From the NCBI GenBank assembly GCA_964462785.1, contig CAYWZA010000002.1:1061-65060 (forward strand): DNA of 64,000 bases, read 5' to 3'. Positions 6,001 to 48,528 of this stretch are shown here, piece after piece. Within the stretch, counting starts at the first letter, position 1. Each line of letters starts with the position of its first letter. Below the pieces are notes generated by a model. That model saw only the letters and a program-made list of their open reading frames with translations, made no database searches and was not told where the DNA came from. This DNA is from an uncultured Candidatus Saccharibacteria bacterium. GTDB taxonomy: Bacteria; Patescibacteriota; Minisyncoccia; Phycocordibacterales; UBA2100. The position numbers were made by a program, and so were the translations under genes.

Positions 6001-7221
6001 TTCAAGCGCGACACTACGGGCGCACCATCCACCGCACTTCGTTCCCCGATCGTGCTCGATCAGCCGTACTTGACCTACATAAATTTTGAGGGAGGGTATC
6101 AACAGCCGCTCAGCAAACAAATCGGAGGATATTTTGTCGGAAGATTTGCGTACCCAGCAAACCAATCAATTCCTGTTACATTTGATTTCTCGAATCCGCA
6201 ATGGGATATAGCCCGCCTCTATATAGACGGAGTGCTGGCACACACGTATGGCAACAACACCGGATCACCTACATTCACCAAGACATTTACCGGTGGTACA
6301 CACATTATTGAAATCGAATACGATAGCAGGTGGCACGCGGGGACATTCGCGCTTCGCATGGGGCTATTAATCAATCCGGGATACACAACAAGCGCGAATG
6401 TCACTACGGCGCTTAAGGCACTCAAAACGCAATATCCGGATCTAAAAGTTCTCGCCGCTGCGGCATATATCTCTAACGATCAGGTAAACGGAGATATTAC
6501 CGTCAATCTCCCCACGATAAATTCTCCCGCGGTGTTGGTGCTATCTTCATACGATCCGGTGCGCTGGCGATGGGTGCACAATCAGGCGGCGGTTAATCAA
6601 ATAAAAGCGATAGTGGTGCATTCACTTGCAGGAGCGGCTGTACCCGATTTTGTCGGATCAATTCCCACGTACCTAGTACGCGAATACATTTCGCGCGATG
6701 CGGGCAATCAGGGTATTACTGCAAAAATCGGTCTCCCTATTGATTCGTATTCAAGTGAATATTCGGGGTCAACAATTACTCTCCCTGCAATTTTGCCACC
6801 ACCAACGGCGTTACCTGAGATTGTCACATTCACCACTTCGTCAAACTCTATTCCGCTTGGAGGCAGTGTGACGGTAAGTTGGCAAAGTAAAAATGCCGTA
6901 CGATGCGTTTTCTACAGCCCGGCTTCAGTAGAAAGAAACGTTCCAGACGATGTCCCTCTATCAGGATCGAAGACACTTGTTTTCGGACAAACAACATCGG
7001 ATTTTAATCAGGGCAAAGTAGCCTCACTGAATCTTACATGCCTTGGTTCAACATTAAACAGCGCGGGGAATACAGTATCTGCTTCGAAAGATTTAACCAT
7101 CACACTTACAGCACCCACTGCTACAACCACAGCATCCAATACATCACCAAGCTCTCAGTTTGCAAACGTTCTGACACCGTTCTTTTCGGCGATACAGGCG
7201 ATTTTTGGATTCAACCGATAG
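3052..7221 (+). CDS. Large secreted surface protein with a PG_binding_1-like domain, a PKD domain and Ig-like repeats (1389 aa)
   Basis: There is an N-terminal signal/TM segment. The PG-binding-like segment reads TELQLFLAEHFGL...TGYFGKTTASYVVRFQQEQGLPAFGIAG. A PKD-like segment reads FVDFGDGTDNVICTD...THTYNNPGVYTAKL. The rest is long and Thr/Ser/Gly-rich and beta-rich. Confidence 0.7.
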   Translation: MSALVFLYLAQHMFKKWAVIGVVLAFLVPLATSASVLSEMRARLEQQRAAQAAQAVGGVGGNTSTFSNFQNPQPVPVPPVNPSKPNTPNTLPDDYPTAGEEKPACPTLTVLLKRGSRDATSKNQVTELQLFLAEHFGLNEEDVVTGYFGKTTASYVVRFQQEQGLPAFGIAGSMTRAAIARVCGGQATPTPSGGAHITLVSPNGGETYNIGDSLQLVWSGKNFPAGSQVCGTLTTAAGGSFAFPPTGSCRDVGGGSGGSTHKGILAGTLIQNPGYNLATGRYTAKITLLGPSTNPERDRPTLAVDTSDTPIVIGGGQTTPSPNNTIFIPSTTLGVAPLQVKFHIPSSEGSFVDFGDGTDNVICTDKAGESCSVSGITHTYNNPGVYTAKLYQSVYRCTTGGVGKDGLPDSGCGYQKTSVILSTAQITVTSSTQGPGLTVKATLEDPTGNGKEAFAFGDQLVIKWSVDPISDLELVGWNGYAPDTGIELRPYNNPTAAGIRIARVKESGVFPHTFTWNVAKEGLYGDVVTSGKYYVYVTVASKQQGGYRVGVAGAVWLGVIPPTPPSTGITVTAPNGGERWEQGVMNTVTWAPYSYTPTVQNPSSDVTAYLERWSLLRGYTTVGKVEASGKASIHWITGELDSATMGGNFVPPGEYYIRVVNNVTGATDRSDKSFTIAPKPIDLKINGSDGPVVINSATDPVTVSWSSPSTSGVHTCQLTSVDQLPWSNVVASSGSISSRLSFGTNTSTTVYIQCIVTNTSGMGAQVTDYVQVTAGTPQAPVLQVISPNGGEQLVVDKPFTLKFKTAGISQMSIALYKNEQWIKWIGEAAGFNGTEGEVNGYRQWEFNPSVTLGPAEASSLPSAGNVYKIYVTGQKADGTGYIDDKSDAPFSFVSGTQSSCTLDGVTLSNGEQAMFYSQKTVAVGKMCGDFGQVRTCNNGVLSGSATYQYATCTEQTVTARSPWGKKLAVAAADIPDGRFRLHVFKRDTTGAPSTALRSPIVLDQPYLTYINFEGGYQQPLSKQIGGYFVGRFAYPANQSIPVTFDFSNPQWDIARLYIDGVLAHTYGNNTGSPTFTKTFTGGTHIIEIEYDSRWHAGTFALRMGLLINPGYTTSANVTTALKALKTQYPDLKVLAAAAYISNDQVNGDITVNLPTINSPAVLVLSSYDPVRWRWVHNQAAVNQIKAIVVHSLAGAAVPDFVGSIPTYLVREYISRDAGNQGITAKIGLPIDSYSSEYSGSTITLPAILPPPTALPEIVTFTTSSNSIPLGGSVTVSWQSKNAVRCVFYSPASVERNVPDDVPLSGSKTLVFGQTTSDFNQGKVASLNLTCLGSTLNSAGNTVSASKDLTITLTAPTATTTASNTSPSSQFANVLTPFFSAIQAIFGFNR

Positions 7222-13478: not shown

Positions 13479-13486
13479 CATGACAG

Positions 13487-13513
13487 AAAAACCTGCACTG
13501 ATGCAGGTTTTTC
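13487..13513 (+). terminator. Rho-independent terminator after tRNA-Lys
   Basis: The hairpin is aaaacctgca, loop ctga, then tgcaggtttt, followed by a T-run. Confidence 0.7.
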
Positions 13514-13584
13514 GGTACATGTCCGAGCCGCAGCGCGACCAAAGTTTCTTCGAGTGAAGCGAGTTAGAAACTGGGAGTACTCCT

Positions 13585-13705
13585 GTGGTGATGTTTTTGT
13601 TTGCCGGAGCGAAGCGCAGGCAAGGCAAAAACCGCGAGGCGGGTGAGCTGCGAATACTTGCAGCAGCGCAAGACCTTTTGAGCGATTTTGGAGTGCGCCA
13701 GCACG
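13585..13705 (+). repeat. tRNA-linked structured repeat element, copy E1 (degenerate, downstream of tRNA-Lys)
   Basis: The core gatgtttttgtttgccggagcgaagcgcaggcaaggcaaaaaccgcgag is about 94% identical to the core downstream of tRNA-Arg-TCT at 42107. A second hairpin (gcgattttg...caaaatcgc) follows. Confidence 0.6.
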
Positions 13706-13776
13706 AACAAAATCGCCAAAAGGTGTACAGGTCATGTAATGACCGCGACCGAGCGCGCGAGAGTTGTGACAACAAA

Positions 13777-17859: not shown

Positions 17860-18849
17860 ATGCGTAAAGCGCGTAAGTCTGCGAACGTTGAAGTCATCGC
17901 TTTTTCTATTTTTATAGTTGCACTGGTTGGCTATAACATTTTGGGCACATTCTCAATTCTTCCGCAGAGCATGGGGGCGGCAGCAGGATCTTCAAATATA
18001 GATTGTGGCGCATCTTGGAAAGGTTTCTATCAGAAAGCACAGGCTGATTATCCGCCACCCCAAGGGAATGATGCAAAATGGAAACAAGAGGCCGACACAA
18101 AAAATCAGACCCAGCCATGTAGCGAGCCTGGCGGTTCGGGTAAATGCGGATTTGGGATGGCCCCAAACATAACTCCAAATGCGACCGTATGTAGTGCGGA
18201 CAAGGACGATGCTGGTAATAAAGCCACCGATGAGGGGGCAAAACAAGCAATGGATGCTGCTAAAAAGGCAGCAGAAGATCTTGCAAAGAAGGCAGGTGAA
18301 AAAAAGGGAGGAGAGGGGGGAGGTATGCCACAGATGCCACAACCAAAAGAGAAGCCGCCAAAACAACCAGAAGATAATAAGGGATGCCCAGAAGGACAGG
18401 AGAAAACAGCAACCGGCTGCCAAGAGAAGAACCCGGCGGCAAACTTTGGAAGCGGCACGCTCTCAAATTTCCTCGAATCTTTTAAGAAAACTTTCGGGTT
18501 GACTGGCGGAAGTGGCAGTGGTGGCGAGACTCCGGAAGAAGCACTGGCGCGCATCGCTGGGGAGATAGATAAAGATCCAACCGTCCCTGCGCAAAGCAAG
18601 CCCGCCATTCAGGGATACGTAAAAGCATTTATTGACGAACATGGCGCAGCTCCTACAAGCGCGCAGATCAAGCAGGTCGTTGGCATGCCAGTGAATGAAA
18701 TTCCGCAAACCCGCGATGCTCTGCGCGAAGCTGCGCAAGGGCTGAATACTCTCGCACCATCCTCGGGTCTCTTCGGCAGCGGCAATAGCTCACCCGAAGA
18801 AACCAACGTTCTCAATCGAGTATTCAATTGGCTCAAGAATTTGATTTAA
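17860..18849 (+). CDS. Secreted paralog-family protein P3 (329 aa, short form with no C-terminal twin domain)
   Basis: It has an N-terminal TM/signal segment, the motif CGASWKGFY (compare CQASWTGYY in P1) and the Gly run KKGGEGGG. The protein is Lys/Glu/Pro-rich and low-complexity. Confidence 0.6.
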   Translation: MRKARKSANVEVIAFSIFIVALVGYNILGTFSILPQSMGAAAGSSNIDCGASWKGFYQKAQADYPPPQGNDAKWKQEADTKNQTQPCSEPGGSGKCGFGMAPNITPNATVCSADKDDAGNKATDEGAKQAMDAAKKAAEDLAKKAGEKKGGEGGGMPQMPQPKEKPPKQPEDNKGCPEGQEKTATGCQEKNPAANFGSGTLSNFLESFKKTFGLTGGSGSGGETPEEALARIAGEIDKDPTVPAQSKPAIQGYVKAFIDEHGAAPTSAQIKQVVGMPVNEIPQTRDALREAAQGLNTLAPSSGLFGSGNSSPEETNVLNRVFNWLKNLI

Positions 18850-18861
18850 TAGCTCGCTCAA

Positions 18862-18896
18862 AGAGAAAGCCGCCCCCAAGGGGCGGCTTTCTCTTT
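18862..18896 (+). terminator. Rho-independent terminator
   Basis: The hairpin is agagaaagccgcccc, loop caag, then gggcggctttctct, followed by Ts. Confidence 0.75.
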
Positions 18897-18953
18897 GACG
18901 GAGTTTGCGAATTGTTTATGGTCACAACTCGCGCCGGCTTCCGCCGGCTCGTT

Positions 18954-19142
18954 CGTGTCCCCTCGGCCGGAATCGGTCACGAATAAATCGCCTGACGGCG
19001 ATTTTTCGCTACCCCGGCTCGCGGTTTTTGTCTCCCCCTCATTTCATTCGGGGAAACAAAAACATCGCTGCGCCTTTCGATTCCGGACGCACAGTGCTCA
19101 AGCGCTATGCTCCGAGGGGACAGTTTTCGCTTCGCTCACGTG
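18954..19142 (-). repeat. tRNA-linked structured repeat element, copy E2, with a perfect 22-bp duplicate of the tRNA-Arg 3' end at its distal border
   Basis: The 22-mer cgtgtcccctcggccggaatcg occurs at 18954-18975 and again at 19139-19160. The second copy is the 3' end of the minus-strand tRNA plus 4 trailer nt. On the minus strand the interior holds the core gcagcgatgtttttgttt, hairpin 1, aaaaaccgcgagccgggg, hairpin 2 (aaatcgccgtcaggcgattt) and tcgtgacc. Confidence 0.7.
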
Positions 19143-19214
19143 TCCCCTCGGCCGGAATCGAACCGACATTACAACCTCCGCAAGGTCGCGTCCTATCCAT
19201 TGAACGACGAGGGG
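19143..19214 (-). tRNA. tRNA-Arg (predicted anticodon GCG, an unusual isoacceptor)
   Basis: The reverse complement folds as a cloverleaf. The acceptor CCCCTCG pairs with CGAGGGG. The D-arm is GTTCAATGGATAGGAC, the anticodon stem is CGACC/GGTTG, the loop is TTGCGGA and the T-arm is GTCGGTTCGATTCCGGC. Confidence 0.55.
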
Positions 19215-19287
19215 CTATTCGACGACTCTAACACGAAATTGCTTTTACGAAAACAAAATCTTTTGCACACTCGCCGCAGGTGGGTGA

Positions 19288-22367: not shown

Positions 22368-22535
22368 AACAGCGCAGCACAAAGTCAATCCCCCGAAATC
22401 AGCCAAAATATGGCGGGTTTCGGGGGATTTTTTAATGGCACACACTATCCCCACCTTTCAATTACACAGCGCCGCAGAGAGGCGCATAGTTATTACCAGA
22501 ACAAAGGAAGACAGAAGTATACAGGGAGGACCTTC

Positions 22536-25493
22536 ATGCGCATTGTTATCGCATGCATACTCGCGTTTGTCGTTGGGTCTTCCAGCGCAAACGCAGCGAT
22601 AAGCGAGGATGTACAACAGTTCATTCTCGATCATCTCAAGCTCGCCGTTCCTATTGAGGAGGCGCCGCAACCACCAGTATCGTTACGCGAGAAAGCGAAA
22701 ACGATCGCTGATGATTTGCAAAAAATATTCGAGTGCGAACGTCGTGGGTGTCTTGGGAAAGCCATCACCTATGGCGGAGAAAAGAATTCCATCCCCGAAC
22801 AGTACAAAGAATTGTTTGCACAGAAATTACAGCTCACGCCGCGCGATAAGGGCGGTGCTTCAGAGCCTGACGGTCGTGCCGTCCCCGGCATCATCATTGC
22901 TTTTATTGGCGCCTGTACGTGGGACGCCGCGGATTGTGACGGTGTGTACATAAATTCTGCACACCGCAACAAAAGTGGTGTCGGCAGTCGCCGGCACACG
23001 AATGATTTTGCAACGCGCGCTTTTGATCTGCTTGGATTCAAAGATATTGATCATCAGATCCGCTTCCTTACACGCATGGTGCTGGTGATAGAAGAGATGG
23101 GACTCGAGCCGAATCTTGGTCTCGGTCTTTCCACCGGCGAGGATGAAGAGGGTAGGGCAATTGCATATCAAGTAACACACATCGACGTGAATGGGCATGA
23201 GGTATCGCGCAAGAGTCGCTGCAAAACAATCTGTAGCAAATGCTCGAAAGTAAAGGGTAAGAGAAAATGCACCTGCAAAAGGCAATGCACGTCACGCGAA
23301 GGATCACATACATGGGATTATGGTCCGCGCACGGCACTGCAGATCATGTTGCAGGAAAAAATAGCAGCCGGACGACTTCCTGTGCAGTTTGCAGACAGCG
23401 TGCTCGTCACTCGCACACTCACCAGTAAATCTCTCGAGCATGAAGAGTCGAAAGATGCGCTGGCAGATGCTCAAGCCACGTCGCCGGTTTCAAGCCAAGG
23501 TAAGACACCGGCACAGCTGAAATACAATCTATGGGGCATCGAGTTTAAAAACTGGAGCCCTGGTCTTGATACGGTATATGGTCGGCAACTCTGTAAAAAG
23601 GGTGGACCGGTGCCGAATAAAGAAAACGTATTTTTCTGCGCATTCGATAATCCGATTGATGCGATGACTGCCTATTTTCTGAAAATCGATGCGTATTGTC
23701 GCAGTGGCATTTGTACGCCGCTCACGATAGCACGCGATTGGGTAGGGATGGGCGACATGGATGCCTATGGCAAAAATGCAGCGATCATCATCAAAGTAGG
23801 ACCGACAGAAGATATAGACAATCTGATAAAGCGGGTGCTTTTGATGCAGGCGCAGGCATGTCTTGAGCAAGGTTTCTGCGTATATTCCGAAGGGAAGCCG
23901 AAGGTGGTGGAACATTTGATCACGGCGTTTCCGTTTTCGCGCAACGAAATTTTTGCCGCTATTATTCGCGCACATTCCGAAAAGGTAGCAAATGAGTGGT
24001 TTGCGAGTACGGTGCCGCCGGTTGGGTTATTTGCCCCCGAGGAGCCGACACTTGCACCCATGACCCCGCTTACTTACAACGCACACTATGAGCCCGACGG
24101 GCGTTTAGTGGTTCCAGGAGTGCGCGCAGATTACAGCCTCTATAAACAAGGGGAGGCAAAATCACAGAAAGACACACTGACCATCATTCATGGCGATGTG
24201 TCGTTCAATTGCAAAGAGATTCAATCGCACTATCACGCATGCATCTCTCGTAATGGTGTGTTCAAGCAATTCCGTCCGTTCAGCGCGCGAGCGCCGCACG
24301 CGGCATACATGAACAGCTATACGACAGGTATCGTACTTCCCGGCATCGATAATTTGCCGCCGGCGCACAGTGCACTGCTGCCACCGACATTAGAACAGCT
24401 TGAAACACTCGCTCGGGTTTTGTTTGCGCGCGATGTTGCCGAAGGTCGACGAATTCCTTTTGCACGTCACCCCAATACCGAGCAGGGCAAAGGGCATAAG
24501 TGCTCCTGCGAAGCCGGCACGCCGGAAAGCGACGTATGGCTCGAGCAGCGCATACAGCAGCTGCACACTGAAAACAATACAAACTTAGAACTTCGCAAAG
24601 AAACACTGCTCAACTTGAGGGGTTCTACGGGTGGCATTGTCACCCGCAGCACATCTCAATTGCTGCAAAGCGTGGACGGCGGTGTGTTGGTGACTGATCC
24701 GCGAGGGTTGGTGCCAGGCGCACAGGCATTCTATCCGGCGGAGGAAATATCTCCGCCAGTTCTTGCTACTATTGCAGTGGTAAATGTTGCGCGACCTGCT
24801 TTATACGGGATCGACGCAACACTACTGCGCGATCCGACGTTTCGCTATCTGGTGGTGCATGAGGCGCATAGCACAGCCACAGAGGCGAGTATGCTGCGCG
24901 CGCTCGACACTGGCGTCTATGAACCAAATATTGATTGCGCACGGCTCTTTAGCGGATGCGCCATGTTTGGCTATCATGCGTTTTTGCCAAAGAAAGGCAG
25001 ACGCATACTGTGGATGGCACCTCGCGGCGCACGTGTAAACGGGATGCAACCTCCGGGGAGCATACCGCGCATGAACGGTGTCGCCGAAAACGCAGCGAAC
25101 ACCAATGCGCTTCATGTAGTACGCGAGGGCGATTCGTCAGAGCCGCTTACCGCGACTCAACAAAGCACGCTTAAGGCACTGAGTGAAGCATTTGCAATCG
25201 AGCCGTCGCACATCATTGGGCATGGCGAAGCACAACCAACAGGTGCCGAGGGGAGAGTGGATGGTATTGTTGCCGCGCGCTCCGTGCGCGGCGCCATAGC
25301 ACCCGACGCCGCTCCCTTAAACGCAGAGTCTGCGTTTAAGACATATCTCGCGCATCGTGCCAACATCTTACGCAATGCTCGTACGCCGCCGCTGCAGGAA
25401 AAAGTGCATGCGCTTGCGCGCGCATATAGCGGCACTATCAACGAAGATGCGGCGCTCGATCTGCTCGTCCCCAAACGACAGCCCGAGCACTGA
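22536..25493 (+). CDS. Secreted peptidoglycan hydrolase-like protein (about 985 aa) with a GH73 glucosaminidase-like central region and an Amidase_2 (AmpD/T7-lysozyme-like) C-terminal domain
   Basis: The start follows the RBS agggagg. The signal peptide ends ...SSSANA. The GH73-like motifs are YNLWGIEF and FCAFDNPIDAMTAYFLKI. The Amidase_2-like motifs are YLVVHEAHSTA and SHIIGHGEAQPTGAEGRVDG, matching the I.GH.E..P....DPG pattern. The ORF track extends upstream to 22410. Confidence 0.55.
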   Translation: MRIVIACILAFVVGSSSANAAISEDVQQFILDHLKLAVPIEEAPQPPVSLREKAKTIADDLQKIFECERRGCLGKAITYGGEKNSIPEQYKELFAQKLQLTPRDKGGASEPDGRAVPGIIIAFIGACTWDAADCDGVYINSAHRNKSGVGSRRHTNDFATRAFDLLGFKDIDHQIRFLTRMVLVIEEMGLEPNLGLGLSTGEDEEGRAIAYQVTHIDVNGHEVSRKSRCKTICSKCSKVKGKRKCTCKRQCTSREGSHTWDYGPRTALQIMLQEKIAAGRLPVQFADSVLVTRTLTSKSLEHEESKDALADAQATSPVSSQGKTPAQLKYNLWGIEFKNWSPGLDTVYGRQLCKKGGPVPNKENVFFCAFDNPIDAMTAYFLKIDAYCRSGICTPLTIARDWVGMGDMDAYGKNAAIIIKVGPTEDIDNLIKRVLLMQAQACLEQGFCVYSEGKPKVVEHLITAFPFSRNEIFAAIIRAHSEKVANEWFASTVPPVGLFAPEEPTLAPMTPLTYNAHYEPDGRLVVPGVRADYSLYKQGEAKSQKDTLTIIHGDVSFNCKEIQSHYHACISRNGVFKQFRPFSARAPHAAYMNSYTTGIVLPGIDNLPPAHSALLPPTLEQLETLARVLFARDVAEGRRIPFARHPNTEQGKGHKCSCEAGTPESDVWLEQRIQQLHTENNTNLELRKETLLNLRGSTGGIVTRSTSQLLQSVDGGVLVTDPRGLVPGAQAFYPAEEISPPVLATIAVVNVARPALYGIDATLLRDPTFRYLVVHEAHSTATEASMLRALDTGVYEPNIDCARLFSGCAMFGYHAFLPKKGRRILWMAPRGARVNGMQPPGSIPRMNGVAENAANTNALHVVREGDSSEPLTATQQSTLKALSEAFAIEPSHIIGHGEAQPTGAEGRVDGIVAARSVRGAIAPDAAPLNAESAFKTYLAHRANILRNARTPPLQEKVHALARAYSGTINEDAALDLLVPKRQPEH

Positions 25494-26089: not shown

Positions 26090-29000
26090 ATGGTACGCGT
26101 TTTATGCGGGTTAATCTTTGTATGCACACTCGCATCTTTTGTCCACACAACCTCAGCACAAGCTCAAAGTAAAAATTGTACGCCCGGGGGTACCTGCAGC
26201 ACCGAATTGGAAGGGGATACTACCACCACCGTTAGTGCCGGAGAAGACAAGGGTACCGCCACACAAGATACGCAACAGACAGGAAGCTGCACAAAAGAGC
26301 TGCAAGCGGCAGGAAAATGTAAGCCGGAGTGTCCAAAAGTAAACTATTCGAGTGTAACCGGTGGGATTGTCACCTGCTACAGCGAGGTGAGCGACAGCTG
26401 CTATATGAATGATAACGCCGGCACTGCTGAGTGTTCGAGTGACGAGATGCAAAAAATTATTGACGGGAAAACTCCTCCGCAAACTACCGATTACGTAGGT
26501 ACGCCGGGGTCACAGAGTGGCTCCTCTAGTGGGGTTCAAAGTCCTGAGATCGAAGCACAGAAGGCATTGCGCGACGCGGAATATAAGTTGGCACAGGCAC
26601 AAAAAAATTATGATCAGTGCTGGTGGGGTTGTGCTGATGAAAAAGCGGCGCTTGAGCAAGCTCAACAAACACGCGATGCAGTGCAAGATTCTGCAGATTA
26701 TCTTAACGAAATTGCCAATAAACCACCCGGTACCTACATACCCGAAACCCCATTGAATACAGCGTTGCAAAATAGTTGGGCTAACAATGTATTGCAACAG
26801 CCCGCACCGGCAGTAACAGAGAGTCGCTTGGGCGATTTCGGTAGCGGATTACGCGAAGCGCTCAGTCCTGATTCTTTTTCGAACTCAGCCTTTCGAGATC
26901 AGTGGAACGGGTGGAATCCAAACGTAACACCGAGCGACGGGGCGTTCAATCGTTTTGATTTTGGAAATAATAGCGGATTCAACTCATTTGGGCAGTCGGT
27001 CGGCAGTGATATTTCTGGAGGGCTGAGTGCTGGTCCGAGCTCATTCACTCCTTTTTCTTTTGACAGTGGCTTAACTGGGAGCCCGTACGATGGGTCCGCC
27101 CCGTTCGAGCCATTCGACTATGAAACTTCCCCCATCGGACCGGGTTGGGGGAATGACGACCTCGGAAAACTATCAAATTTCGATTTCTCGAATGCGCCGC
27201 TGCAGCCAAGCACTCTGCAAGATCTATCGAATTTAAATAACGGGTTATTACCCACACTCCCCAGTGTTTCAGATCCACTTGGTGCCCTGAAAAGTTTGGA
27301 TTCGGAGCAACTTCCTACGGTGTCAGATGCTCAATCACCGAATGATTTTCTTGGACTCAAGGCTATCGCAGAGCAACAACCGCCTGAAGGCAGCGGATTG
27401 AGTGCCGAGGATTTCAGCGAGCGCCTCGAAGTGTTTAAAAAAGGATTCGGCAATGTGGTGGACAGCCTCACTGAGGGGGTGCAGGGTATTTTTGCGGGAG
27501 ACATCAGCGCACCTGATTTTTGGGATAAAACACTTAAAAATATCGGCGTTGGTGTCAACGCTGGTTTGGGTGAAGGGGGAGTACGCCTCGGCGGCATCCT
27601 CGACTACTCTCCGCTAAGCGATGGCGGGCTATTGCCTGGTCTGCGGCAGACGGTCAAAGACGTGTTTGGGTGGGGAAGTGATGTCGCGACACCACCCGAG
27701 ATACCATCGGGGATACAAGGCGGCGGAGCGCTGACCGCAGGTGAGTCATATCGGCGAGAGCTCGATGCTGCGAAACAAGCATCCGCAGCTGCGGGCGAGC
27801 GCGCACGGCGAGCAGACGAAAACGCTCGCAGCACGGGATCCTATGATCCAGACAATGCCTTTGAAGTGGAAAGATACAATGCGGCGCAGGCAGAAATAAA
27901 AGCCGCACGTGAGGAGCAAGCAGCTGCGCAAGCGCGGCTTGCGGCAGCACAGGCGGATGTTGATCGTATCCGCGCGCGCGACAACCAAGTCCCCGGGCAG
28001 GGGAGCATTGCGAATACGGGCGTGAATGAAGCTAAGGTGGTGGCAGATTCGGGCGTACGCGATACACAGGGAACAGAAAGTCTTGCGTACCAGCGTGCAG
28101 CAAAAGACTACCAGGCATTATTACCCCTCGCGGCTCCGGTTACCAACGCTCTGCAAGACGCGAATAGCGCCTGGATAAAACGAGCTGAAGAAATAGGGCT
28201 CATTGAAAATATCGGAACAGCTGATAAGCCGCAATATCGAATACGCCCTGAACTCACGGAAACGCAACGGATCAATAAAATGGGAATGCTGCGCGACGAG
28301 ACCGATCGTCTCAATTTGGCAAAAGATCAATACAAGACATATGCAGAGACGCTCAAAGATGCTCGCGACAAAACTCTGTATGCGGCAGGTGCAGATCCGT
28401 TGTTTTCGGACGCCGCGCGGGCAAATGCACTTTTGGGCGATATGCGTCTAAGACCTGAACAAGAAATACCCATTGATGAATATTGGCAAGACAAAAATGG
28501 ACTGGCAATGGGAGTGGGCGCAGCGGGAGCTATGGGAAGATATGTTCTTAGAATGGATCCTTATCAACCAGTCATCAACTCAAATGCGCAAGAAATTGCA
28601 TTTAATGAACTGCAGGCAAAACAAGAAGCACTCATTCAATCATTAGCGGGATGTACCGACTGTCAAAATGTTATTGAAGCGATTGAACGCAACAATGAAC
28701 TTGCAAAACAATTTGAAAGCGGACAGTTTGAGGGAGCGCAAAAAGACTATCTCATAAAACTTTCAGACCAAAACCCTATTCAAAGGGATCTTCCAGTAGG
28801 GGATTTAACCACACAAGAATTAGCTTCGCGGGCAAGCAATGAATGGGGAAGGCTGCTCCGCGGTACGCAAGAATATCTTGGCGCGGAAATGGGTAAGGCG
28901 TGGGAGGAGGGAGAATATGGCAAAGCAACAGCTCTTTTCTTGCTACAAACCCCAGGGCAGATCACACAAGGCTTGCTCGGGGCTGAGTCGCTCCAAGGAC

Positions 29001-32000
29001 TTGGGCAAACACTATATGGTGCTGACACCAGTATTCTCGGGCTGACAATTCCCGGAGGGGAAGCGGGCTATAATATTGTAAGAAATGTCACCGATGCAGG
29101 GACTTTATCTGTAGTTACGGGTGCCTACTTATTTCCAGGACCGGCAGGGTTAGCACTAAGGGGAGCTGATAGCCTTGCCGCCAGCGCGGGGCGCTTTGCG
29201 GGTAACATTGCGGACGTCAGATCCGCCTTGAATGTTGCCGATAGTGGAGCGGGCTTTGGGTATGATTTTTCAGGGCGACCATCGGCGGATGCAATCATTC
29301 GTGATGGGGGCTTAGCAGTGGTACCCGAGAACAACATATCTACTGCGCCCGCGCGTGATGGTGGCTCAAGTCCTCCGCCTCAATTAACCTCGAACGCACC
29401 ATCTCCCACATCACGCTCCGTCACTCAACCCCCTCCATTGCGTAATGAATTCTCACCCACAGGTGGTGCGCGCACCAGTGGCAATGCGGTGCAAGGAGCG
29501 CCCCCCTCCGCCTCATTTATTCCAGGGACTTCGCCGCTCGGCGATCTTGCAGACGCAATGCGTCGAGGATCACCGACACTGATCACCCCGTCTAATTTCG
29601 GTCGGACCGGCGACGACGTTCTCTTCGGTGGTGCGGCGAATGACAATCTAATGGGCTCTACTCCTGCCGGAGGTCCGCCTTTGGAAAATAGGTGGTTTGC
29701 ATTTGCGCGCGCTCCCGAGGATGGAGGGGGAGCGGGGCGTGGAGGCACGATCATACCGTTTACTCCACGAGCGTCCGAGCTCCCAAGTGTCGGCGGTGGG
29801 GACACTATTGTATTTAGAGAAGGTTTTGGCAGTGATGCACCACCAGCTCGCGTGGACGCAGGTGCTATTGATGACGCGACACTGCGTGAGCTCGAAAACA
29901 TTCTCGCGAACGAGCCGGATCAATTTGTGTTTCGTACTGTTGATGATGCCGTCACACCCGATGGCGTGACAGATCTGTTGCAGCGCCGATACGGAGGAGC
30001 ATCTCTAGAGGAAATCGCAAAAGCACGGGAGGCAATACGGCTGAATGAAGCTGCCCGTCGTCTTGATTCTCAAAACACTTCGCAGGCAACCGCGGATGCA
30101 AGCACTTTGCGTGCCCGCGCTGCACAAATCGCAACCGACATCAATGATCCTGCTTTGGGTAGATTGGCTGAATCGTGGGGAGGGGAAAGAGCGCCGAGCG
30201 CAGCAGGTGCTGGCGTTCCAGATAGTGTCGTTGCAGCAGAGGCGGCACAGCCAAAACCCGCTTCTGGAATTTTATCCCCCATTACCAACACTCCATTCGC
30301 AAGAGCGTTGTGCGTTATAGGTGGCTTGTTCTGTGGGTCGCAAGCTGTTCCTGGGCAGTTGGTAAACGATCTCAATCCGTTGGGTATAAGTTCGGCAAAT
30401 GCAAAGCCGGCAGCGCTTCCGGTCCAATTAGTGCATGACGGTGTCTTGGGGGTTGAGACAGGTGCGGCGTCGACATACAACCCGAATGTGGTCGGGTGGA
30501 GAACGGGTGGGGAAAAACTTGCAACAGGCGGAAGATACAATCCCGATGAATTTGAAGCTGCGCTACAGACAGGATTGGCGGAACAGTATCGAATGGGGCA
30601 CAGCAGATACCCCAATGTCGGGTACGCGCTTGTGGAAGCGGAAGGCAGAAAACTTATTGTACGCATTAATGACAACGGTCCATTAGTTCGCAATCGCATC
30701 ATCGATCTCAACGAAGCCTCGATGCGCTATTTAAGTGGTGGTAGATATGGCAACAATTCGGGAGTATTGCAAAATACACGAGTAACTGTTTTGGCAGGAC
30801 AAAACTATACGCCGGGACCGCTTGCGAATGATGCCACTCTTCTCGCTCGGGCTGAAATACCGCCCGCAAGTCCAACAGCACCTCGCATAGAAACAGGATC
30901 ACTGAGCGCCCCTAAGTCAGCGGTGGATTCCGCAGTTGATGAAATTACAAAAAGGGCGGAGCAGGTGGGTGACGCTGTTAGAAAAGCAGGCGATGATCTT
31001 GCGAAAGCACTCGATATACGCCCCGGCACTCCGGAAACTGACTTCATGAAAAACGTGCAAGGGAAATTAGTGGAAACACCACCACCAGCGGCATTGATCA
31101 AAAATTTTGACGTTAACAATCACACTTCCGCAGAAGCAAGAGCGGTCCAGGAGGCGCTTAGAGCCCAGGGGTATGACACAGCTGTTGATGGAGTTATCGG
31201 TCCGCAGACAATACGCGCGCTCGAAAGCGCGAGAGTGGATATTGATGGTGCGTTGCGCAATATTTTCACAGACCAAGCTGACTATCAGCAAGCGCGCAGG
31301 ATATTCCTCGAAAGATTTAAAGGTATGCCCAAAAATTTTGAGCAACCACTGCTCACCATGTTGCGAAAGATGCAAGAGGCTGGTCAGGCGCTGCCCGGCG
31401 ATAATCAGCCGATCGTGCTGGTTAACGTAAGCGGAAGCAGAGAGGGGGTTGCCATTATGTCGCTCACACACAACGACGGGCTCCTTCTTTGGGAGGGAAG
31501 TCCGACACTCAGAGTCGGCGTAGCAGCTAATGGCCCGATTGATTGGGCAAAAGATTTTATTGGCTCGAACAAAACGATAGTGGGCTCAGTAGCAAAAATT
31601 ATTGGTGGGGAACATCGTGGAGACAAGGCTTGGGCAGTGGGCGCGCTTTATCGGGAGTCAATAGATGGGGGATTACAGAACGAGAGAGTCACATGGTATC
31701 ACGGAGTTTCTAATCGCGCCGTTACACCAGGCCAGCGCCCCAACGCAACATCGGGGTGTGTTTCAATGTGTTCTCTAGTGATGCAAAATTTGTATGATCA
31801 AGTGCTGGGAACCCCTGGTGTGGGGGAACCGGGGTGGCAACTCGCAGGTAGAGATGGGGCAGTGCGGGGAGCAAATAAGATTAACGGGGGATATACGTAT
31901 GAATTTTCTGAGCAAGTGACAAACAGCGTTGGTGTTGCAGAAAATAAGGCAATTGCCCAGAAAGAGCCGGTGATGGTTGCTGATGCTGCGCCAGGTGGTG

Positions 32001-34447
32001 GTGCGACTCAGGGTCTTACTCCTGAAACCGCCGAAATCGCTCGGGTGTATGAGATATCCGGAGAGACTGGAACGATACCAAAGGGAGCGATCCTTGAGGT
32101 GAGCCCGGATGGAAAAACATTAACCTATGGCGAGACCGTGTACCAAGCAAAACAGATTTCTGGAGAACCGATTCCGCTAGAACCCGCATCAGCACTTTCA
32201 ATTATAGATTTGAAACCTTTACAAGTGGACTGGCTAGACAGAATACAGATTGAAGGCGTTCCGAAGCTGGGACTAGAACTTCAGGTGTGGCGACCAGATT
32301 TCAACGCCGCGGTTGAAAATGTGATGCGGGGGGTCAATGATGGCATCTCTGAATTCAAACAAATCGTCAGTGGCGTACCCGGCGACATATCAAAATGGGT
32401 TTCTAGAAACAGCTTTAATGTCAGTGTTAGTCTTGAACCGAATCCGGCATGGCTTAAAGCGGTTGGAGATAGTGCTAATACTGCTGCAGAGCGAATAACA
32501 ATAATGTATCGGGACGCATATGCTGCTTTGGACGACTTCCCGTCAGCACCTCCCACGCCAGGTGACCCATTATTCGGTCTATTCGCCTTGGGTAGCACGC
32601 GACGCACATCAAATGCACCATCCCAAACACCAATACCCGAGGGGGTAGACACTCCGCCCGCAGGACTTGGGTTGCAGGCACCACCTTCAAAAATAGCAGG
32701 CACGGGTGATACACAGAAATTTGTACCTACCTCGCGCAACATTAATCCAGCACCGGTACGCGCGATTGATGATATTCCCGCACCGACAGATGGCGTAACT
32801 CCGCCATTGTCACGGACTCAACCTGATGTTACTGAGGGTATGAGTAAATCTGGTCGCACGGGAGGAGCTTCGATCACTGATGACACTGCCACAAACGGGA
32901 CAGTGCCCGCGAAACAAGACACTCCGCCCGCAGGACTTGGGTTGCAGGCACCACCTTCAAAAATAGCAGGCACGGGTGATACACAGAAATTTGTACCTAC
33001 CTCGCGCAACATTAATCCAGCACCGGTACGCGCGATTGATGATATTCCCGCACCGACAGATGGCGTAACTCCGCCATTGTCACGGACTCAACCAGTTGGT
33101 GATTCCGCTGCGAACATGACAGAACTCATGAGCCGAAGCGCACAGCAAAGTGCGCCAGCCACAGCCGCTTCAGTGGGTGCCATGAAGAAAGTTTCAAATA
33201 CAATCCGCGCTTGTGTAAATGGGGGATGGACGACGGCGAAGTGTGCGGGTGTTGCAATAGTCGCAACGTGGGCTGGGACATGCGCACTAACGGGGTACGA
33301 CGGTGTTCCATGCAATTGGCAAGGGACAAGGACAGGCACATGCATATCGGACGGAGGGAGGAAATGTGTTACAGGAGCATCCCCAGGAGCGGATGCAACA
33401 AAAGATGGTACAGAAAAAACACCACCTGCGGATACAGATAAAGACAGAACTGGCGCAGGCGCACCTCCACCAGATGATACAGGCGCAGGGAGGAGACCGC
33501 CTCCAAGTGCCCAGACGCCACCCAATAGTGGCACTGCAGCACCTACACGCACCACACAAGGAGGATCGGGTGGAAGTGGTCTTGGTGGATTGATGGGAAT
33601 GCTCGGGCAATTTATGCAGATGCTTACCGGGCAGGGAGCGCAAGAGCCAGATGCATCACCAACAGGATCGCCTAAGGCACCGACAACAGTGACTCTCTCC
33701 TGCGATCCGTCAATTATTCTCAATCGTGGCACGACAACGATTCGCTGGGCGTGCTCAGGTAATGAGCGCAGTACGGGAGTGAATTTCGATACACGCGGCG
33801 CGCCGTCGGGATCGGTGGAGCGGGGTATTGATACCATCGAGCAGAGCATGCAATTTGGCGTTTCGTGTGGCGGCAGCGCGCCGCGCAGCTGCTCAGTGCG
33901 CGTACTGCACCCGCGCATCACACTCACCGCATCTCCGGGCGAAGTGGAAAGCGGCACGCACGCACGACTCAATTGGGCTGGAGTGGGCGTGCGATCATGC
34001 GGAGTGCTCGCGCCTACCTCAAATGAAATTGCGCGCGGGACGGCGACAGGATTTGTCGACACGCCCGATCTCACACGCTCACAGCGCTTTGCGGTGGTCT
34101 GCTCTACTGATGCAGGCAAGCCTGTGCATGAATTCATTACCGTGCGCGTCGCAGGCGATGACACGGATCCGGAAGTAGTGGAGATTCCTGAAGCGTATAT
34201 GCGCACCACGCCTTCCTCCGCGGCGTCAGCGCTGCCCACCGCAGTGAGCGATCTGCCCTCAGAAGAGGGGAGTAGTTTCTTCGATGGTTCTGCAAATACT
34301 CCATCGCCCAGCGCACCACAAGAGCCGATCACACCGCCCCCCGGCACGTTCACCGCAACTGATGCTCAAGGCAACGCCGTCTTCCTCTGTGATCCTGAAG
34401 CAGGTATTGATACCTATATTTCGTGCATATCCGGAGGAAGGTGGTAG
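26090..34447 (+). CDS. Giant secreted multidomain protein P5 (2785 aa) with coiled-coil regions, a PG_binding_1 domain, a YkuD-like L,D-transpeptidase fold, an RlpA-like double-psi beta-barrel, an internal exact repeat and the family C-terminal twin beta-domain
   Basis: Signal peptide is MVRVLCGLIFVCTLASFVHTTSAQA. The RlpA/DPBB-like segment is TGGRYNPDEFEAA...LIVRINDNGPLVRNRIIDLNEASMRYL. The PG_binding_1 segment is TSAEARAVQEALRAQGYDTAVDGVIGPQTIRALE. The YkuD-like segment is WYHGVSNRAVTPGQRPNATSGCVSMCSLVMQNLYD. The Gly/Met motif is GGSGGSGLGGLMGMLGQFMQMLTGQG. The C-terminal 200 aa align with P1, P2 and P4. Confidence 0.8.
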   Translation: MVRVLCGLIFVCTLASFVHTTSAQAQSKNCTPGGTCSTELEGDTTTTVSAGEDKGTATQDTQQTGSCTKELQAAGKCKPECPKVNYSSVTGGIVTCYSEVSDSCYMNDNAGTAECSSDEMQKIIDGKTPPQTTDYVGTPGSQSGSSSGVQSPEIEAQKALRDAEYKLAQAQKNYDQCWWGCADEKAALEQAQQTRDAVQDSADYLNEIANKPPGTYIPETPLNTALQNSWANNVLQQPAPAVTESRLGDFGSGLREALSPDSFSNSAFRDQWNGWNPNVTPSDGAFNRFDFGNNSGFNSFGQSVGSDISGGLSAGPSSFTPFSFDSGLTGSPYDGSAPFEPFDYETSPIGPGWGNDDLGKLSNFDFSNAPLQPSTLQDLSNLNNGLLPTLPSVSDPLGALKSLDSEQLPTVSDAQSPNDFLGLKAIAEQQPPEGSGLSAEDFSERLEVFKKGFGNVVDSLTEGVQGIFAGDISAPDFWDKTLKNIGVGVNAGLGEGGVRLGGILDYSPLSDGGLLPGLRQTVKDVFGWGSDVATPPEIPSGIQGGGALTAGESYRRELDAAKQASAAAGERARRADENARSTGSYDPDNAFEVERYNAAQAEIKAAREEQAAAQARLAAAQADVDRIRARDNQVPGQGSIANTGVNEAKVVADSGVRDTQGTESLAYQRAAKDYQALLPLAAPVTNALQDANSAWIKRAEEIGLIENIGTADKPQYRIRPELTETQRINKMGMLRDETDRLNLAKDQYKTYAETLKDARDKTLYAAGADPLFSDAARANALLGDMRLRPEQEIPIDEYWQDKNGLAMGVGAAGAMGRYVLRMDPYQPVINSNAQEIAFNELQAKQEALIQSLAGCTDCQNVIEAIERNNELAKQFESGQFEGAQKDYLIKLSDQNPIQRDLPVGDLTTQELASRASNEWGRLLRGTQEYLGAEMGKAWEEGEYGKATALFLLQTPGQITQGLLGAESLQGLGQTLYGADTSILGLTIPGGEAGYNIVRNVTDAGTLSVVTGAYLFPGPAGLALRGADSLAASAGRFAGNIADVRSALNVADSGAGFGYDFSGRPSADAIIRDGGLAVVPENNISTAPARDGGSSPPPQLTSNAPSPTSRSVTQPPPLRNEFSPTGGARTSGNAVQGAPPSASFIPGTSPLGDLADAMRRGSPTLITPSNFGRTGDDVLFGGAANDNLMGSTPAGGPPLENRWFAFARAPEDGGGAGRGGTIIPFTPRASELPSVGGGDTIVFREGFGSDAPPARVDAGAIDDATLRELENILANEPDQFVFRTVDDAVTPDGVTDLLQRRYGGASLEEIAKAREAIRLNEAARRLDSQNTSQATADASTLRARAAQIATDINDPALGRLAESWGGERAPSAAGAGVPDSVVAAEAAQPKPASGILSPITNTPFARALCVIGGLFCGSQAVPGQLVNDLNPLGISSANAKPAALPVQLVHDGVLGVETGAASTYNPNVVGWRTGGEKLATGGRYNPDEFEAALQTGLAEQYRMGHSRYPNVGYALVEAEGRKLIVRINDNGPLVRNRIIDLNEASMRYLSGGRYGNNSGVLQNTRVTVLAGQNYTPGPLANDATLLARAEIPPASPTAPRIETGSLSAPKSAVDSAVDEITKRAEQVGDAVRKAGDDLAKALDIRPGTPETDFMKNVQGKLVETPPPAALIKNFDVNNHTSAEARAVQEALRAQGYDTAVDGVIGPQTIRALESARVDIDGALRNIFTDQADYQQARRIFLERFKGMPKNFEQPLLTMLRKMQEAGQALPGDNQPIVLVNVSGSREGVAIMSLTHNDGLLLWEGSPTLRVGVAANGPIDWAKDFIGSNKTIVGSVAKIIGGEHRGDKAWAVGALYRESIDGGLQNERVTWYHGVSNRAVTPGQRPNATSGCVSMCSLVMQNLYDQVLGTPGVGEPGWQLAGRDGAVRGANKINGGYTYEFSEQVTNSVGVAENKAIAQKEPVMVADAAPGGGATQGLTPETAEIARVYEISGETGTIPKGAILEVSPDGKTLTYGETVYQAKQISGEPIPLEPASALSIIDLKPLQVDWLDRIQIEGVPKLGLELQVWRPDFNAAVENVMRGVNDGISEFKQIVSGVPGDISKWVSRNSFNVSVSLEPNPAWLKAVGDSANTAAERITIMYRDAYAALDDFPSAPPTPGDPLFGLFALGSTRRTSNAPSQTPIPEGVDTPPAGLGLQAPPSKIAGTGDTQKFVPTSRNINPAPVRAIDDIPAPTDGVTPPLSRTQPDVTEGMSKSGRTGGASITDDTATNGTVPAKQDTPPAGLGLQAPPSKIAGTGDTQKFVPTSRNINPAPVRAIDDIPAPTDGVTPPLSRTQPVGDSAANMTELMSRSAQQSAPATAASVGAMKKVSNTIRACVNGGWTTAKCAGVAIVATWAGTCALTGYDGVPCNWQGTRTGTCISDGGRKCVTGASPGADATKDGTEKTPPADTDKDRTGAGAPPPDDTGAGRRPPPSAQTPPNSGTAAPTRTTQGGSGGSGLGGLMGMLGQFMQMLTGQGAQEPDASPTGSPKAPTTVTLSCDPSIILNRGTTTIRWACSGNERSTGVNFDTRGAPSGSVERGIDTIEQSMQFGVSCGGSAPRSCSVRVLHPRITLTASPGEVESGTHARLNWAGVGVRSCGVLAPTSNEIARGTATGFVDTPDLTRSQRFAVVCSTDAGKPVHEFITVRVAGDDTDPEVVEIPEAYMRTTPSSAASALPTAVSDLPSEEGSSFFDGSANTPSPSAPQEPITPPPGTFTATDAQGNAVFLCDPEAGIDTYISCISGGRW
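32648..33093 (+). repeat. Exact 176-bp direct repeat (period 270 bp) inside the giant gene
   Basis: The segment 32648-32823 matches 32918-33093 with no visible mismatch. Each encodes DTPPAGLGLQAPPSKIAGTGDTQKFVPTSRNINPAPVRAIDDIPAPTDGVTPPLSRTQP. The ORF track shows identical antisense ORFs over both copies. Confidence 0.85.
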
Positions 34448-42041: not shown

Positions 42042-42095
42042 CGCGAGGGCACACAAGCACAAAACCTGCCCTGCGGCAGGTTTTGTGCTTGTGTG
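42042..42095 (+). terminator. Strong hairpin terminator after tRNA-Arg-TCT
   Basis: The stem is cacaagcacaaaacctgcc, the loop is ctgc and the return strand is ggcaggttttgtgcttgtg. Confidence 0.7.
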
Positions 42096-48343: not shown

Positions 48344-48429
48344 GCCCGGGTGGCGAAACTGGCTAGACGTACCACCTTGAGGTGGTGGCGCCCGTTAAGG
48401 GCATGGAGGTTCGAGTCCTCTCCCGGGCA
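48344..48429 (+). tRNA. tRNA-Leu (anticodon GAG), type II
   Basis: The acceptor GCCCGGG pairs with CCCGGGC. The anticodon stem-loop is CCACC TTGAGGT GGTGG. There is a long variable arm, and the T-arm is GGAGGTTCGAGTCCTCT. Confidence 0.75.
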
Positions 48430-48483: not shown

Positions 48484-48528
48484 TGTATATATATGTGATA
48501 AAATAATCGCATTAATATTTATTTACAT

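Follow-up and report, generated by a model that had tools for sequence, protein, structure and literature searches.

The 64,000 nucleotides (nt) analyzed here, hereafter the window, come from an uncultured Candidatus Saccharibacteria bacterium (contig CAYWZA010000002.1, positions 1,061 to 65,060 of the forward strand). On their minus strand a tRNA-Arg(GCG) gene is followed by a non-coding element that ends in a perfect second copy of the tRNA 3' end. This element is probably one copy of a large family of small, structured, non-coding elements in the trailers of tRNA and transfer-messenger RNA (tmRNA) genes, mobile or duplicative in nature, which occurs in the Candidate Phyla Radiation (CPR; Patescibacteria) and the Elusimicrobia and is similar in kind to the RtT repeats of Escherichia coli. 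Comparisons among loci show that the element is an insertion and that the two copies of the tRNA end, X1 (proximal) and X2 (distal), are its flanking direct repeats. The initial annotation, made from the sequence of the stretch, had offered a mobile element and a structured non-coding RNA gene as alternatives, but these are not mutually exclusive and the data fit both at once.

ARAGORN and Rfam both called the tRNA-Arg(GCG) where the initial annotation had placed it, with its 3' boundary at 19142/19143, and the exact 22-bp duplication of its 3' end was recovered with 22 of 22 positions identical. A repeat search found this to be the sole direct repeat in 18850-19250 (18954-18975 and 19139-19160, 100% identity, spacing 185), and the insert of 163 nt between the two copies is non-coding. 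Read on the tRNA strand, the repeat is CGATTCCGGCCGAGGGGACACG, and it spans C56 of the T-loop, the T-stem 3' strand, the acceptor 3' strand, the discriminator A73 and then 4 nt of trailer. An independent Logan assembly of another run holds a base-for-base identical locus, and the tRNA-Arg(GCG) locus is therefore not an assembly artifact. The two-hairpin interior described in the initial annotation corresponds to P1 and P2; the antisense copies of the repeat (X'a and X'b) and a truncated second scaffold at 18920-18951 had been overlooked. The parts of the locus, in their order along the minus strand, are the following.

19143-19214, minus strand: tRNA-Arg(GCG), an intact cloverleaf with no encoded CCA (ARAGORN; Rfam RF00005, 53.2 bits).
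19139-19160, minus strand: X1, the proximal 22-nt copy (C56 to A73 plus 4 trailer nt), inside the functional tRNA (repeat search, 100%).
19122-19138, minus strand: linker or loop from X1 to X'a, in the place of the terminator-like hairpin T1 of most other copies (copy comparison).
19112-19121, minus strand: X'a, antisense of the acceptor 3' strand and discriminator (GTCCCCTCGG; inverted repeats I4 and I6, 11 nt at 100%; minimum free energy (MFE) fold).
19087-19111, minus strand: Px, a hairpin between X'a and X'b, at the equivalent of the acceptor/T-stem boundary (MFE fold).
19078-19086, minus strand: X'b, antisense of C56 to the T-stem 3' strand (CCGGAATCG; inverted repeats I3 and I5).
19075-19077, minus strand: AAA linker, directly after X'b.
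19016-19074, minus strand: P1, GGC GCA GCG..GTTTTTGTT..ACAAAAAC..CGC GA GCC, with a conserved base and a variable, covarying upper stem (RNAalifold, pair counts).
18975-19013, minus strand: P2, GGTAGCG..GTCA loop..TTCGTGACC, with the conserved base GGUNGCG...CGUGACC (fold and pair counts).
18954-18975, minus strand: X2, the distal 22-nt copy and 3' strand of the closing helix P0 (repeat search).
18920-18951, minus strand: 5'-truncated remnant of a second scaffold, CGAGCC..GCGCGAGTTGTGACC (compared with P2 variants, e.g., L022).
18860-18896, no strand assigned: bidirectional palindrome resembling a terminator, common to the locus and the convergent gene 17860-18849 (24-nt inverted repeat I1, 92%).

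Folding of the 192-nt element RNA gave a z-score of -8.1 relative to shuffled sequences. In the MFE fold of the Arg(GCG) element, X'a and X'b pair with X2 over 19 bp to form a closing helix, P0, that carries P1 and P2, although the inverted repeats and the fold also allow X'a to pair with X1 instead of X2. Copies of the family are laid out, from 5' to 3', as an optional T1, X' (antisense of C56 to N74 and often split by Px), the AAA linker, P1, P2 and X2 (the sense copy of C56 to N74). Comparison of these copies shows that X' and X2 form P0, and that the transcript is a three-way junction on a helix copying the T-stem and acceptor 3' strand of the neighboring tRNA; the helix terminates in the discriminator of the copied tRNA end. 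Longer copies have the terminator-like hairpin T1 immediately 3' of the tRNA, and Px (RAGC..CUGC/CUUC loop..GCGU at many loci) between X'a and X'b at the point where the acceptor helix and the T-stem meet. Given this position of Px, the RNA resembles the acceptor/T-arm helix of the neighboring tRNA with the scaffold replacing the T-loop.

Covariation in this structure is very strong. In a 122-sequence alignment fitted to the covariance model described below, standard pairs occupy 91.1% of cells (68.5% in shuffles) and 28 of 31 pairs show changes on both sides (about 21 in shuffles). None of 500 shuffles attained the observed pairing values, and sliding the partners by 1-3 columns left 30-44% pairing. 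Because this alignment was fitted to the model, RNAalifold was also run on a plain MAFFT alignment, from which it recovered P1 and P2 independently with 13 covarying pairs. All 9 pairs of the P0 helix have double changes (121 sequences). P1 is 97.5% paired, and its conserved base, GSC-GSA-G...C-GA-GSC, alternates between GGC/GCC and GCC/GGC, a GSC/GSC covariation of 61:53. The GG linker is conserved, as is the base of P2, which includes a G.U pair in 118 of 120 sequences; since this pair is invariant, the structure is strand-specific. At the junction X'b ends in UCG or GAG opposite C56-G57-A58, with the GAG form giving a tandem G.A. Among copies the 3' part is conserved and the 5' part is not. 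Self-cleaving ribozymes, box C/D RNAs and K-turns were considered as candidates and rejected by eye, as the GSA/GA and GAG/CGA tandem G.A loops misfit the hammerhead core and the K-turn bulge rule.

The view of the locus as a recurring, tRNA 3'-end-specific insert with no coding capacity was borne out by the family search. A pattern for the conserved core, scanned against one genome per species, matched at least 119 loci. Among the matches listed, about 78 are true copies, all of them in Patescibacteria (Saccharibacteria, Paceibacterota, Kaiser-, Nomura-, Zambryski- and Taylorbacteria, and others) or Elusimicrobia, the remainder are chance matches in GC-rich genomes, and 76 loci have an upstream tRNA of the same strand at a distance below 450 nt. 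In the tRNA-linked loci the sequence following ..CGTGAC is a copy of the upstream tRNA from C56, i.e., X2. The covariance-model search proposed in the initial annotation likewise found many further copies: a model built from 29 short copies gave 122 matches in 96 sources. In these sources the scaffold follows 109 of the 213 tRNA and tmRNA genes, a set that covers nearly every isoacceptor as well as tmRNA (L038, L065 and L009); other tRNAs have their own 3'-end duplicates, a point that the initial annotation had proposed to test. Across the family more than 40 tRNA species plus tmRNA are occupied, and linkage to a tRNA or tmRNA 3' end, in the orientation of the tRNA, is obligatory. The elements are about 85-190 nt long and lack coding capacity, and their scaffolds do not cluster by tRNA type and are 90-95% identical between distant CPR classes. 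X2 is an exact match to the tRNA over at least 17 nt from C56 in 33 of 92 family members; in about one quarter of copies it consists only of CACAAA.. (the last tRNA bases and trailer), as in the copy behind the window tRNA-Arg(TCT), and many X2 copies are decayed or interrupted.

Additional scaffold types share the X'/X2 plan and the C56 junction. Variants with this junction were seen in L112 (tRNA-Arg(ccg), two in tandem), L099 and L059 (tRNA-Ala), L061, L045 and L078; examples are a core ending in ..GAAAGGAGGGG followed by CGATTCC, and P2 variants of the forms ..TTAGTGAG..C and GCTGCG..TGCGTAGC, each followed by CGA. A second scaffold type with the motif GTACNGAACATGTA lies behind tRNA-Leu(gag) in L160 and L188 and has, as the main type does, the X'/X2 plan at the tRNA T-loop. 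In L026, L092, L031, L072, L102, L012, L056 and L094 the distal tRNA-end copy is broken after CGA (A58) or after the T-loop part, and the interruptions are small extra hairpins such as AACTGTAATCAGGG or CCTGCCTG..CAGGCAGG.

Orthologous sites that are filled in some genomes and empty in others provide evidence of insertion. The gene uppS, which flanks the window tRNA-Val, was used to gather 80 syntenic metagenome loci; homologues of a flanking 329-aa protein were also sought for the empty-site test, but only the protein itself was recovered. Across the uppS-syntenic loci tRNA-Val(tac), tRNA-Leu(gag) and tRNA-Arg(tct) share their neighborhood, and each is found with a scaffold in some genomes and without one in others, which is the outcome that the initial annotation had proposed to look for in relatives. 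The clearest comparison is that of L164, whose site is empty, with L168, whose site is filled. Their tRNA-Val genes are identical, what L168 has beyond L164 is about 150 nt and a 19-nt second copy of CAAGTCTCTCATCGCGCAC (C56 to C74), and the sequence after the tRNA in L164 matches that after X2 in L168 at about 95% identity. Related genomes have unrelated scaffolds, or none, at the same tRNA-Val, and the unrelated scaffolds argue for independent events. At another locus, L097, a stretch of about 135 nt is identical in the inserts behind tRNA-Ser(cga) and tRNA-Ser(tga), and yet each insert lies between copies of the 19 nt that belong to its own tRNA; X' fits tRNA-Ser(tga) only, and 2-3 nt differ at the 5' junction.

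The boundaries of the repeats are sharply placed on one side and variable on the other. The left edge is fixed at C56, with no leftward identity in 87 of 92 tRNA/element pairs and a single base of it in the other five, whereas the right edge lies 1-3 nt, sometimes more, beyond the discriminator; exact repeat lengths in these pairs peak at 19-21 nt. In five cases X2 has N73-CCA where the tRNA copy has N73-CA, and these fit insertion after C74 of an encoded CCA. The junction had been described as falling right after GGTTC in every copy. It in fact follows GGTT, with C56 being part of the repeat and simultaneously the last base of P2, and the T-loop junction is restricted to the Arg(GCG) and Val elements among the four window copies.

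Tandem, nested and truncated copies are common (L061, L103, L116, L162 and the window remnant at 18920-18951), and the older ones, often 5'-truncated, lie distal. These arrangements show that new tandem copies pile up beside the tRNA and displace older ones downstream. The tRNA and the element are anywhere from 1 to more than 100 nt apart, and some copies, as in L055, begin 1 nt after one tRNA and stop 5 nt short of the next one. In most copies X' agrees with the tRNA behind which it stands, frequently without mismatch over 19 nt (the window, L174, L104 and L061), and such matched X' segments coexist with scaffolds that are not clustered by tRNA type. A different kind of duplication was seen in L123 (1800-2178, minus strand), where tRNA-Val(tac) is partially duplicated in tandem from the anticodon arm to the trailer at an element-free site. 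In L014 (5080-7780), 2.4 kb with small open reading frames (ORFs) only lie between tRNA-Ala and a scaffold with X2, and the duplication runs on for more than 100 nt past the tRNA end and enters a terminator and promoter-like region. Inspected by eye, with no Pfam scan, these ORFs include a membrane-like protein of 183 aa and a Cys-rich one of 110 aa and no obvious integrase.

Within the window four of the seven tRNA genes bear an element. The initial annotation had reported the same organization 3' of three other tRNAs, and the covariance model confirms the scaffolds behind tRNA-Val and tRNA-Arg(TCT), while the copy behind tRNA-Lys is only partial and rearranged.

43954-44124, minus strand: copy behind tRNA-Val(TAC), with a T1 hairpin, X'b GGGACGAG, scaffold at 43969-44069 and X2 at 43954-43968, the latter 15 nt identical to the tRNA from C56 (covariance-model match 43957-44070, minus strand, 64.2 bits).
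42053-42246, plus strand: copy behind tRNA-Arg(TCT), with a terminator hairpin, scaffold at 42098-42196 and then CACAAAA, a trailer copy forming a trailer-type junction; a degenerate copy of the T-arm and 3' end follows 25 nt later, at 42222-42246 (covariance-model match 42108-42208, plus strand, 42 bits).
13480-13770, plus strand: rearranged copy behind tRNA-Lys(TTT), with a large insertion in P1 and a different 3' domain with a type-B motif, ending in GCGCGAGAGTTGTGAC and having no tRNA-end copy (partial covariance-model match 13591-13680, plus strand, 18.6 bits, E = 0.045).

The motif of the 18920-18951 remnant also terminates the Lys copy, at 13755-13770, and a portion of the GTACNGAACATGTA-type scaffold lies within the same element at 13700-13745. 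The terminators of window tRNAs (48425-48487 and other trailers) are long A-tract/U-tract palindromes, and the terminator 3' arm can also pair with the last 5-6 nt of the tRNA (GGGCAC...GTGCCC behind tRNA-Leu), even at tRNAs that are element-free. The tRNA-Arg at 19143-19214 (minus strand) has the anticodon GCG instead of the usual bacterial ACG, as do those of 9 CPR loci.

The element encodes nothing, which suggests that it would be mobilized in trans. The repeats would be target-site duplications formed at insertion and not carried by the element. By analogy with RtT, the element may be co-transcribed as part of the tRNA precursor, and the machinery that processes tRNA ends would cut the element RNA out, since the end of the element looks like the end of a tRNA. 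Copies set tightly between two tRNAs, as in L055, are in line with co-transcription. The mechanism that we rate most likely, although we advance it only tentatively, is retroposition of this tRNA-trailer RNA. With a target tRNA gene nicked in its T-loop, priming would take place on the X2 end of the element RNA via the near-universal CGAWUCC, and target-primed copying of this sort would leave the 3' junction precise and the 5' end ragged. Retroposition is favored because of the invariant 3' junction and conserved 3' structure, the unconserved and truncated 5' part, the variable duplication and the 5'-junction differences in L097. In keeping with a retroposon, the 3' junction is always ..GAC followed by C56, the 5' end is variable or truncated, the length of the duplication varies and filler nt occur; no reverse transcriptase partner was found in the window. 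The sequence of X2 might alternatively have come from a mature tRNA, as in primer-binding sites of tRNA-primed elements, but where CCA is unencoded X2 and X' agree with the genomic trailer and not with CCA, and this origin was therefore rejected.

An alternative mechanism is that a nuclease or integrase makes cuts staggered by about 19 nt. Casposases, for example, give duplications of 14-35 nt at tRNA 3' ends (PMC4779613). A more far-reaching extension of the retroposition mechanism, which we regard as speculative and on balance doubtful, is that RtT-like elements of the CPR and Elusimicrobia, and perhaps E. coli RtT itself, are bacterial counterparts of site-specific short interspersed nuclear elements (SINEs). 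In that scheme tRNA-trailer RNAs freed by 3' processing would fold as mimics of a tRNA end and be copied into the T-loops of other tRNA and tmRNA genes, with CGAWUCC serving as the priming homology and C56 to N74 being duplicated each time.

Several observations weigh against a mobile or duplicative RNA element. Pfam scans of about 40 window ORFs revealed housekeeping genes only, with no recombinase, transposase, reverse transcriptase, TnpB or Cas gene in the window. When all ORFs within 3.5 kb of copies were clustered, no protein family occurred in more than 8 of the 78 loci, and the top neighbor clusters, judged by eye and with no domain scan, look like housekeeping proteins (PilM, RluA-type, L19, CCA-adding enzyme, RecG and FtsH). 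The L164/L168 pair carries no polarity and would fit either insertion or precise deletion between the 19-nt repeats, and the two inserts of L097 could be the result of gene conversion between two pre-existing elements. A matched X' is not accounted for by simple insertion with target duplication, unless X' was templated from the target or homogenized later. The variable stems have 88 G.U against 63 A.C pairs, and beyond the conserved G.U of P2 this ratio does not prove that RNA, rather than single-stranded DNA, folds. Lastly, transcription and processing in the CPR are surmised from RtT only.

Some of these observations would be expected if the element were an ancient RNA module, resident and vertically inherited behind many tRNAs, in which selection for the closing helix preserves X2 and X', deletion between the 19-nt direct repeats leaves empty sites, unequal crossing-over yields tandems and gene conversion yields identical copies. 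Deletion between direct repeats would restore a perfect empty site, L097 is compatible with gene conversion, and most copies have an X' that fits their tRNA; strong conservation of the scaffold moreover extends across phyla in both sequence and structure, changes in X2 and X'b are compensated (e.g., in L013), and in E. coli RtT occurs only at tyrT/tyrV, with a tandem number of 1 to 10. We nevertheless consider a resident module unlikely. Unrelated scaffolds, or none, stand at the same tRNA-Val in relatives, scaffolds are not clustered by tRNA type, and the many decayed or interrupted X2 copies indicate that identity to the tRNA is not strictly maintained, while the occupation of more than 40 tRNA species plus tmRNA requires spread at some time. 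There is very little to recommend an origin by chance, by duplication of a larger segment or by faulty assembly. Duplications reaching more than 100 nt beyond the repeat do occur occasionally, as L014 demonstrates, and the initial annotation had named a larger segmental duplication as a possible undoing of its proposal. At tRNA-Arg(GCG), however, the identity is 22 of 22 nt with a sharp left edge and ends a few nt past the tRNA, which refutes such an origin; the independent assembly gives the identical sequence, and the pattern recurs at more than 90 tRNAs.

The initial annotation had seen in the locus the signature of site-specific insertion into tRNA genes. Insertion tied to the tRNA 3' end is upheld by the comparisons above, but an att duplication of the integrase type is disfavored because the L097 inserts carry target-specific repeats and no recombinase is associated with the copies. 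We accordingly regard as very improbable the remnant of an integrase-type element, with attL and attR retained and the interior deleted (similar to a cis-mobilizable element, CIME), in which the 22 nt would be the identity block of attP and attB, restoring the tRNA 3' end, and the crossover would lie in the T-loop. Integrative elements and genomic islands of tyrosine or serine recombinases that target tRNA and tmRNA genes (the T-loop sublocation class) do have direct repeats of the tRNA 3' part, and such repeats flank the CPR element as well; a repeat running from the T-loop to the tRNA 3' end, with tmRNA as a further target and tandem accretion beside the tRNA, is classical for tRNA/tmRNA integrases, and Dehalococcoides ssrA islands have 20-bp repeats (PMC3146451). 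The CPR element differs in its length of 85-190 nt, its internal antisense copy and its target-derived repeat: in L097 the inserts are identical but the repeats are not (gene conversion being the other reading), and a repeat carried by the element would make a chimeric, dead tRNA upon insertion in a different single-copy tRNA gene. No integrase was found in the window or, by eye, among the small ORFs of L014, no recombinase recurs beside copies, and no copies were found in 2.9 million viral contigs, phage records or plasmid records. In addition, the CGTGAC to the left of X2 is unlike a T-stem core site, and RNA-type covariation of P1 and P2 would be unexpected for arm sites. Type V-K CRISPR-associated transposons (CASTs) home to tRNA genes. 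A guide RNA gene, whether for an omega RNA, a CRISPR RNA (crRNA) or a V-K CAST homing crRNA, has in its favor that the conserved scaffold precedes a 3' segment that is variable, about 19-21 nt long and identical to a target close by. The 19-20-nt guide would equal the tRNA following a GGTT target-adjacent or protospacer-adjacent motif, directing a nuclease, repressor or transposase, and the invariant upstream motif and sharp C56 boundary are in line with this. The omega RNAs of TnpB, the palindrome-associated transposable elements (PATEs) of the IS200/IS605 group and V-K CAST crRNAs all resemble the CPR element in having a conserved scaffold and a 3' segment equal to adjacent DNA. In the CPR element, however, that segment is base-paired inside the RNA, so that the guide would be sequestered by X' in P0, about one quarter of copies have only a trailer-type X2 (CACAAA) and share no flanking motif, and P0 persists in many copies whose X2 has decayed or been interrupted. 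A perfect guide would also target the cell's own essential tRNA gene. IS605-type elements insert at a target-adjacent motif without duplication and have subterminal hairpins and TnpA/TnpB, whereas a duplication is present here; no TnpA, TnpB, IscB or Cas gene was found in the window, no TnpB, IscB or Cas gene recurs nearby, and Rfam searches of the window and ten CPR loci gave no IS605-orfB or HEARO match. A guide RNA gene thus appears to us a remote prospect. A group I intron was also considered and rejected: the tRNA introns of Patescibacteria split the anticodon loop, at position 35/36, and no interruption exists in this tRNA.

Some other features of the window stand apart from the element. 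A free-standing LAGLIDADG_3-like ORF (47618-48319, plus strand) ends 25 nt 5' of tRNA-Leu(gag) at 48344-48430. The gene at 59907-63320 (plus strand) encodes a class-I aminoacyl-tRNA synthetase of the Ile/Val type (Pfam tRNA-synt_1 and Anticodon_1) into which a complete His_Phos_1 histidine-phosphatase domain is inserted (residues 492-672, E = 1e-37). Three very large ORFs on the plus strand (3052-7221, 22410-25493 and 26090-34447; 1389, 1027 and 2785 aa) contain only short matches to peptidoglycan-binding, amidase or DPBB domains.

The element is of the RtT-like kind, which is known but poorly understood, and is a new variant of it, a tRNA 3'-end mimic found throughout the CPR and Elusimicrobia. 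CPR bacteria have tiny genomes, and yet up to half of their tRNA genes bear a conserved element that is absent from Rfam. The family ties the unexplained RtT repeats of E. coli to a larger phenomenon and suggests that RtT, too, is an inserter into T-loops that mimics tRNA ends and duplicates its target. If movement is mediated by RNA, the family would be the first SINE-like retroposon of bacteria; if instead a nuclease or integrase moves the element, that enzyme would recognize the T-loop of any tRNA gene and might serve as a tool for site-specific insertion. For annotation and assembly, the consequences of the element are pseudo-tRNA 3' ends, long palindromes and breakpoints of assembly beside tRNAs in thousands of metagenome-assembled genomes.

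Rfam searches returned no match for the window at gathering thresholds, for the locus at E <= 10 or for ten CPR loci at E <= 1, apart from tRNA, tmRNA and chance hits (RNAI, 22 bits), and no mention of such a CPR element was found in the literature searched. Among other known mobile elements, casposons share with the family only the long duplication at the tRNA 3' end (PMC4779613). They differ in having terminal inverted repeats, an encoded casposase and PolB, and a duplication whose length is fixed within a lineage; the window contains no Cas1 or PolB, and the CPR copies have no recurrent neighbor and no constant termini. As with miniature transposable elements bounded by inverted repeats (MITEs), which derive from DDE transposons, the copies are small, non-coding and numerous, with presence/absence polymorphism. 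MITEs have conserved terminal inverted repeats and a fixed short duplication; here the left end is unconserved, the duplication is at least 18-22 nt with a variable right edge, and the only inverted repeat, X'/X2, is specific to the target. Site-specific non-LTR retroelements, such as R2, and their non-autonomous derivatives, which follow the logic of SINEs, are co-transcribed with their target gene, and their 3' end carries downstream target sequence that can anneal to the nicked target. They resemble the CPR element in their precise 3' junction, truncated 5' end, filler nt and variable duplication; the antisense copy X' has no counterpart in them. We know of no such R2- or SINE-like elements in bacteria.

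The closest likeness of plan is to RtT, and the claim that no described family has this architecture accordingly did not hold. RtT, or rttR, consists of repeats of about 178 bp at the E. coli tyrT-tyrV locus (Rfam RF00391). As in the CPR family, RtT units lie in a tRNA operon directly 3' of the tRNA and on the same strand, singly or in tandem. Each unit includes GGGGAAGGAU, which is antisense to the T-stem/acceptor strand of tRNA-Tyr, followed by GAGAAG, a structured core with two inner hairpins and ..ACGA(gUa)AUCCUUCCCCCACCACCA, a copy of the tRNA-Tyr 3' end. The RF00391 consensus is closed by the antisense:sense helix, as CPR copies are by P0, and the RNA annotated as rttR stops at the CCA in the copied tRNA end. 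The junction motifs are also alike, GGAUGAGAA..(G)ACGA in RtT and GGAUGAGAAAG..GACCGA in the CPR family, and the tandem G.A motif of RtT, which is supported by covariation (PMC7657543), is similar to that of GAG-form CPR junctions. RtT members beside tRNA-Asn and tRNA-Lys in Pasteurellaceae have been seen on Northern blots (PMC4986893). Tandem copy number ranges from 1 to 10 among E. coli genomes, and it differs between Erwinia strains (PMC7542023). A preprint on mobilome sequencing describes raised coverage of the tyrT-rttR region in exonuclease-resistant DNA under stress (10.1101/2024.07.17.603846), which could bear on RtT excision (L202, NC_000913.3 1286709-1287622).

There are nonetheless differences between the two. 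Their core sequences differ, the tRNA-end copy of RtT takes in the encoded CCA and has 3 additional nt behind CGA, and RtT is confined to one E. coli locus, whereas the CPR family is found on up to half of tRNAs and on tmRNA and shows insertion polymorphism. RF00391 gave no match to the window (gathering threshold, 45 bits), to 18850-19250 (E <= 10) or to ten CPR loci (E <= 1), while the same search found four RtT copies at 133-138 bits in E. coli. In the reverse direction, the three best matches of the CPR model R1 in L202 lie inside RtT units, with weak scores of 7.4-8.7 bits (E = 0.2-0.4). Since RF00391 misses the CPR elements and the CPR model scores RtT at only 8.7 bits, the CPR family is not a member of RtT. 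We treat it as working like RtT and as possibly a distant relative of it through the shared GGAUGAGAA..ACGA junction.

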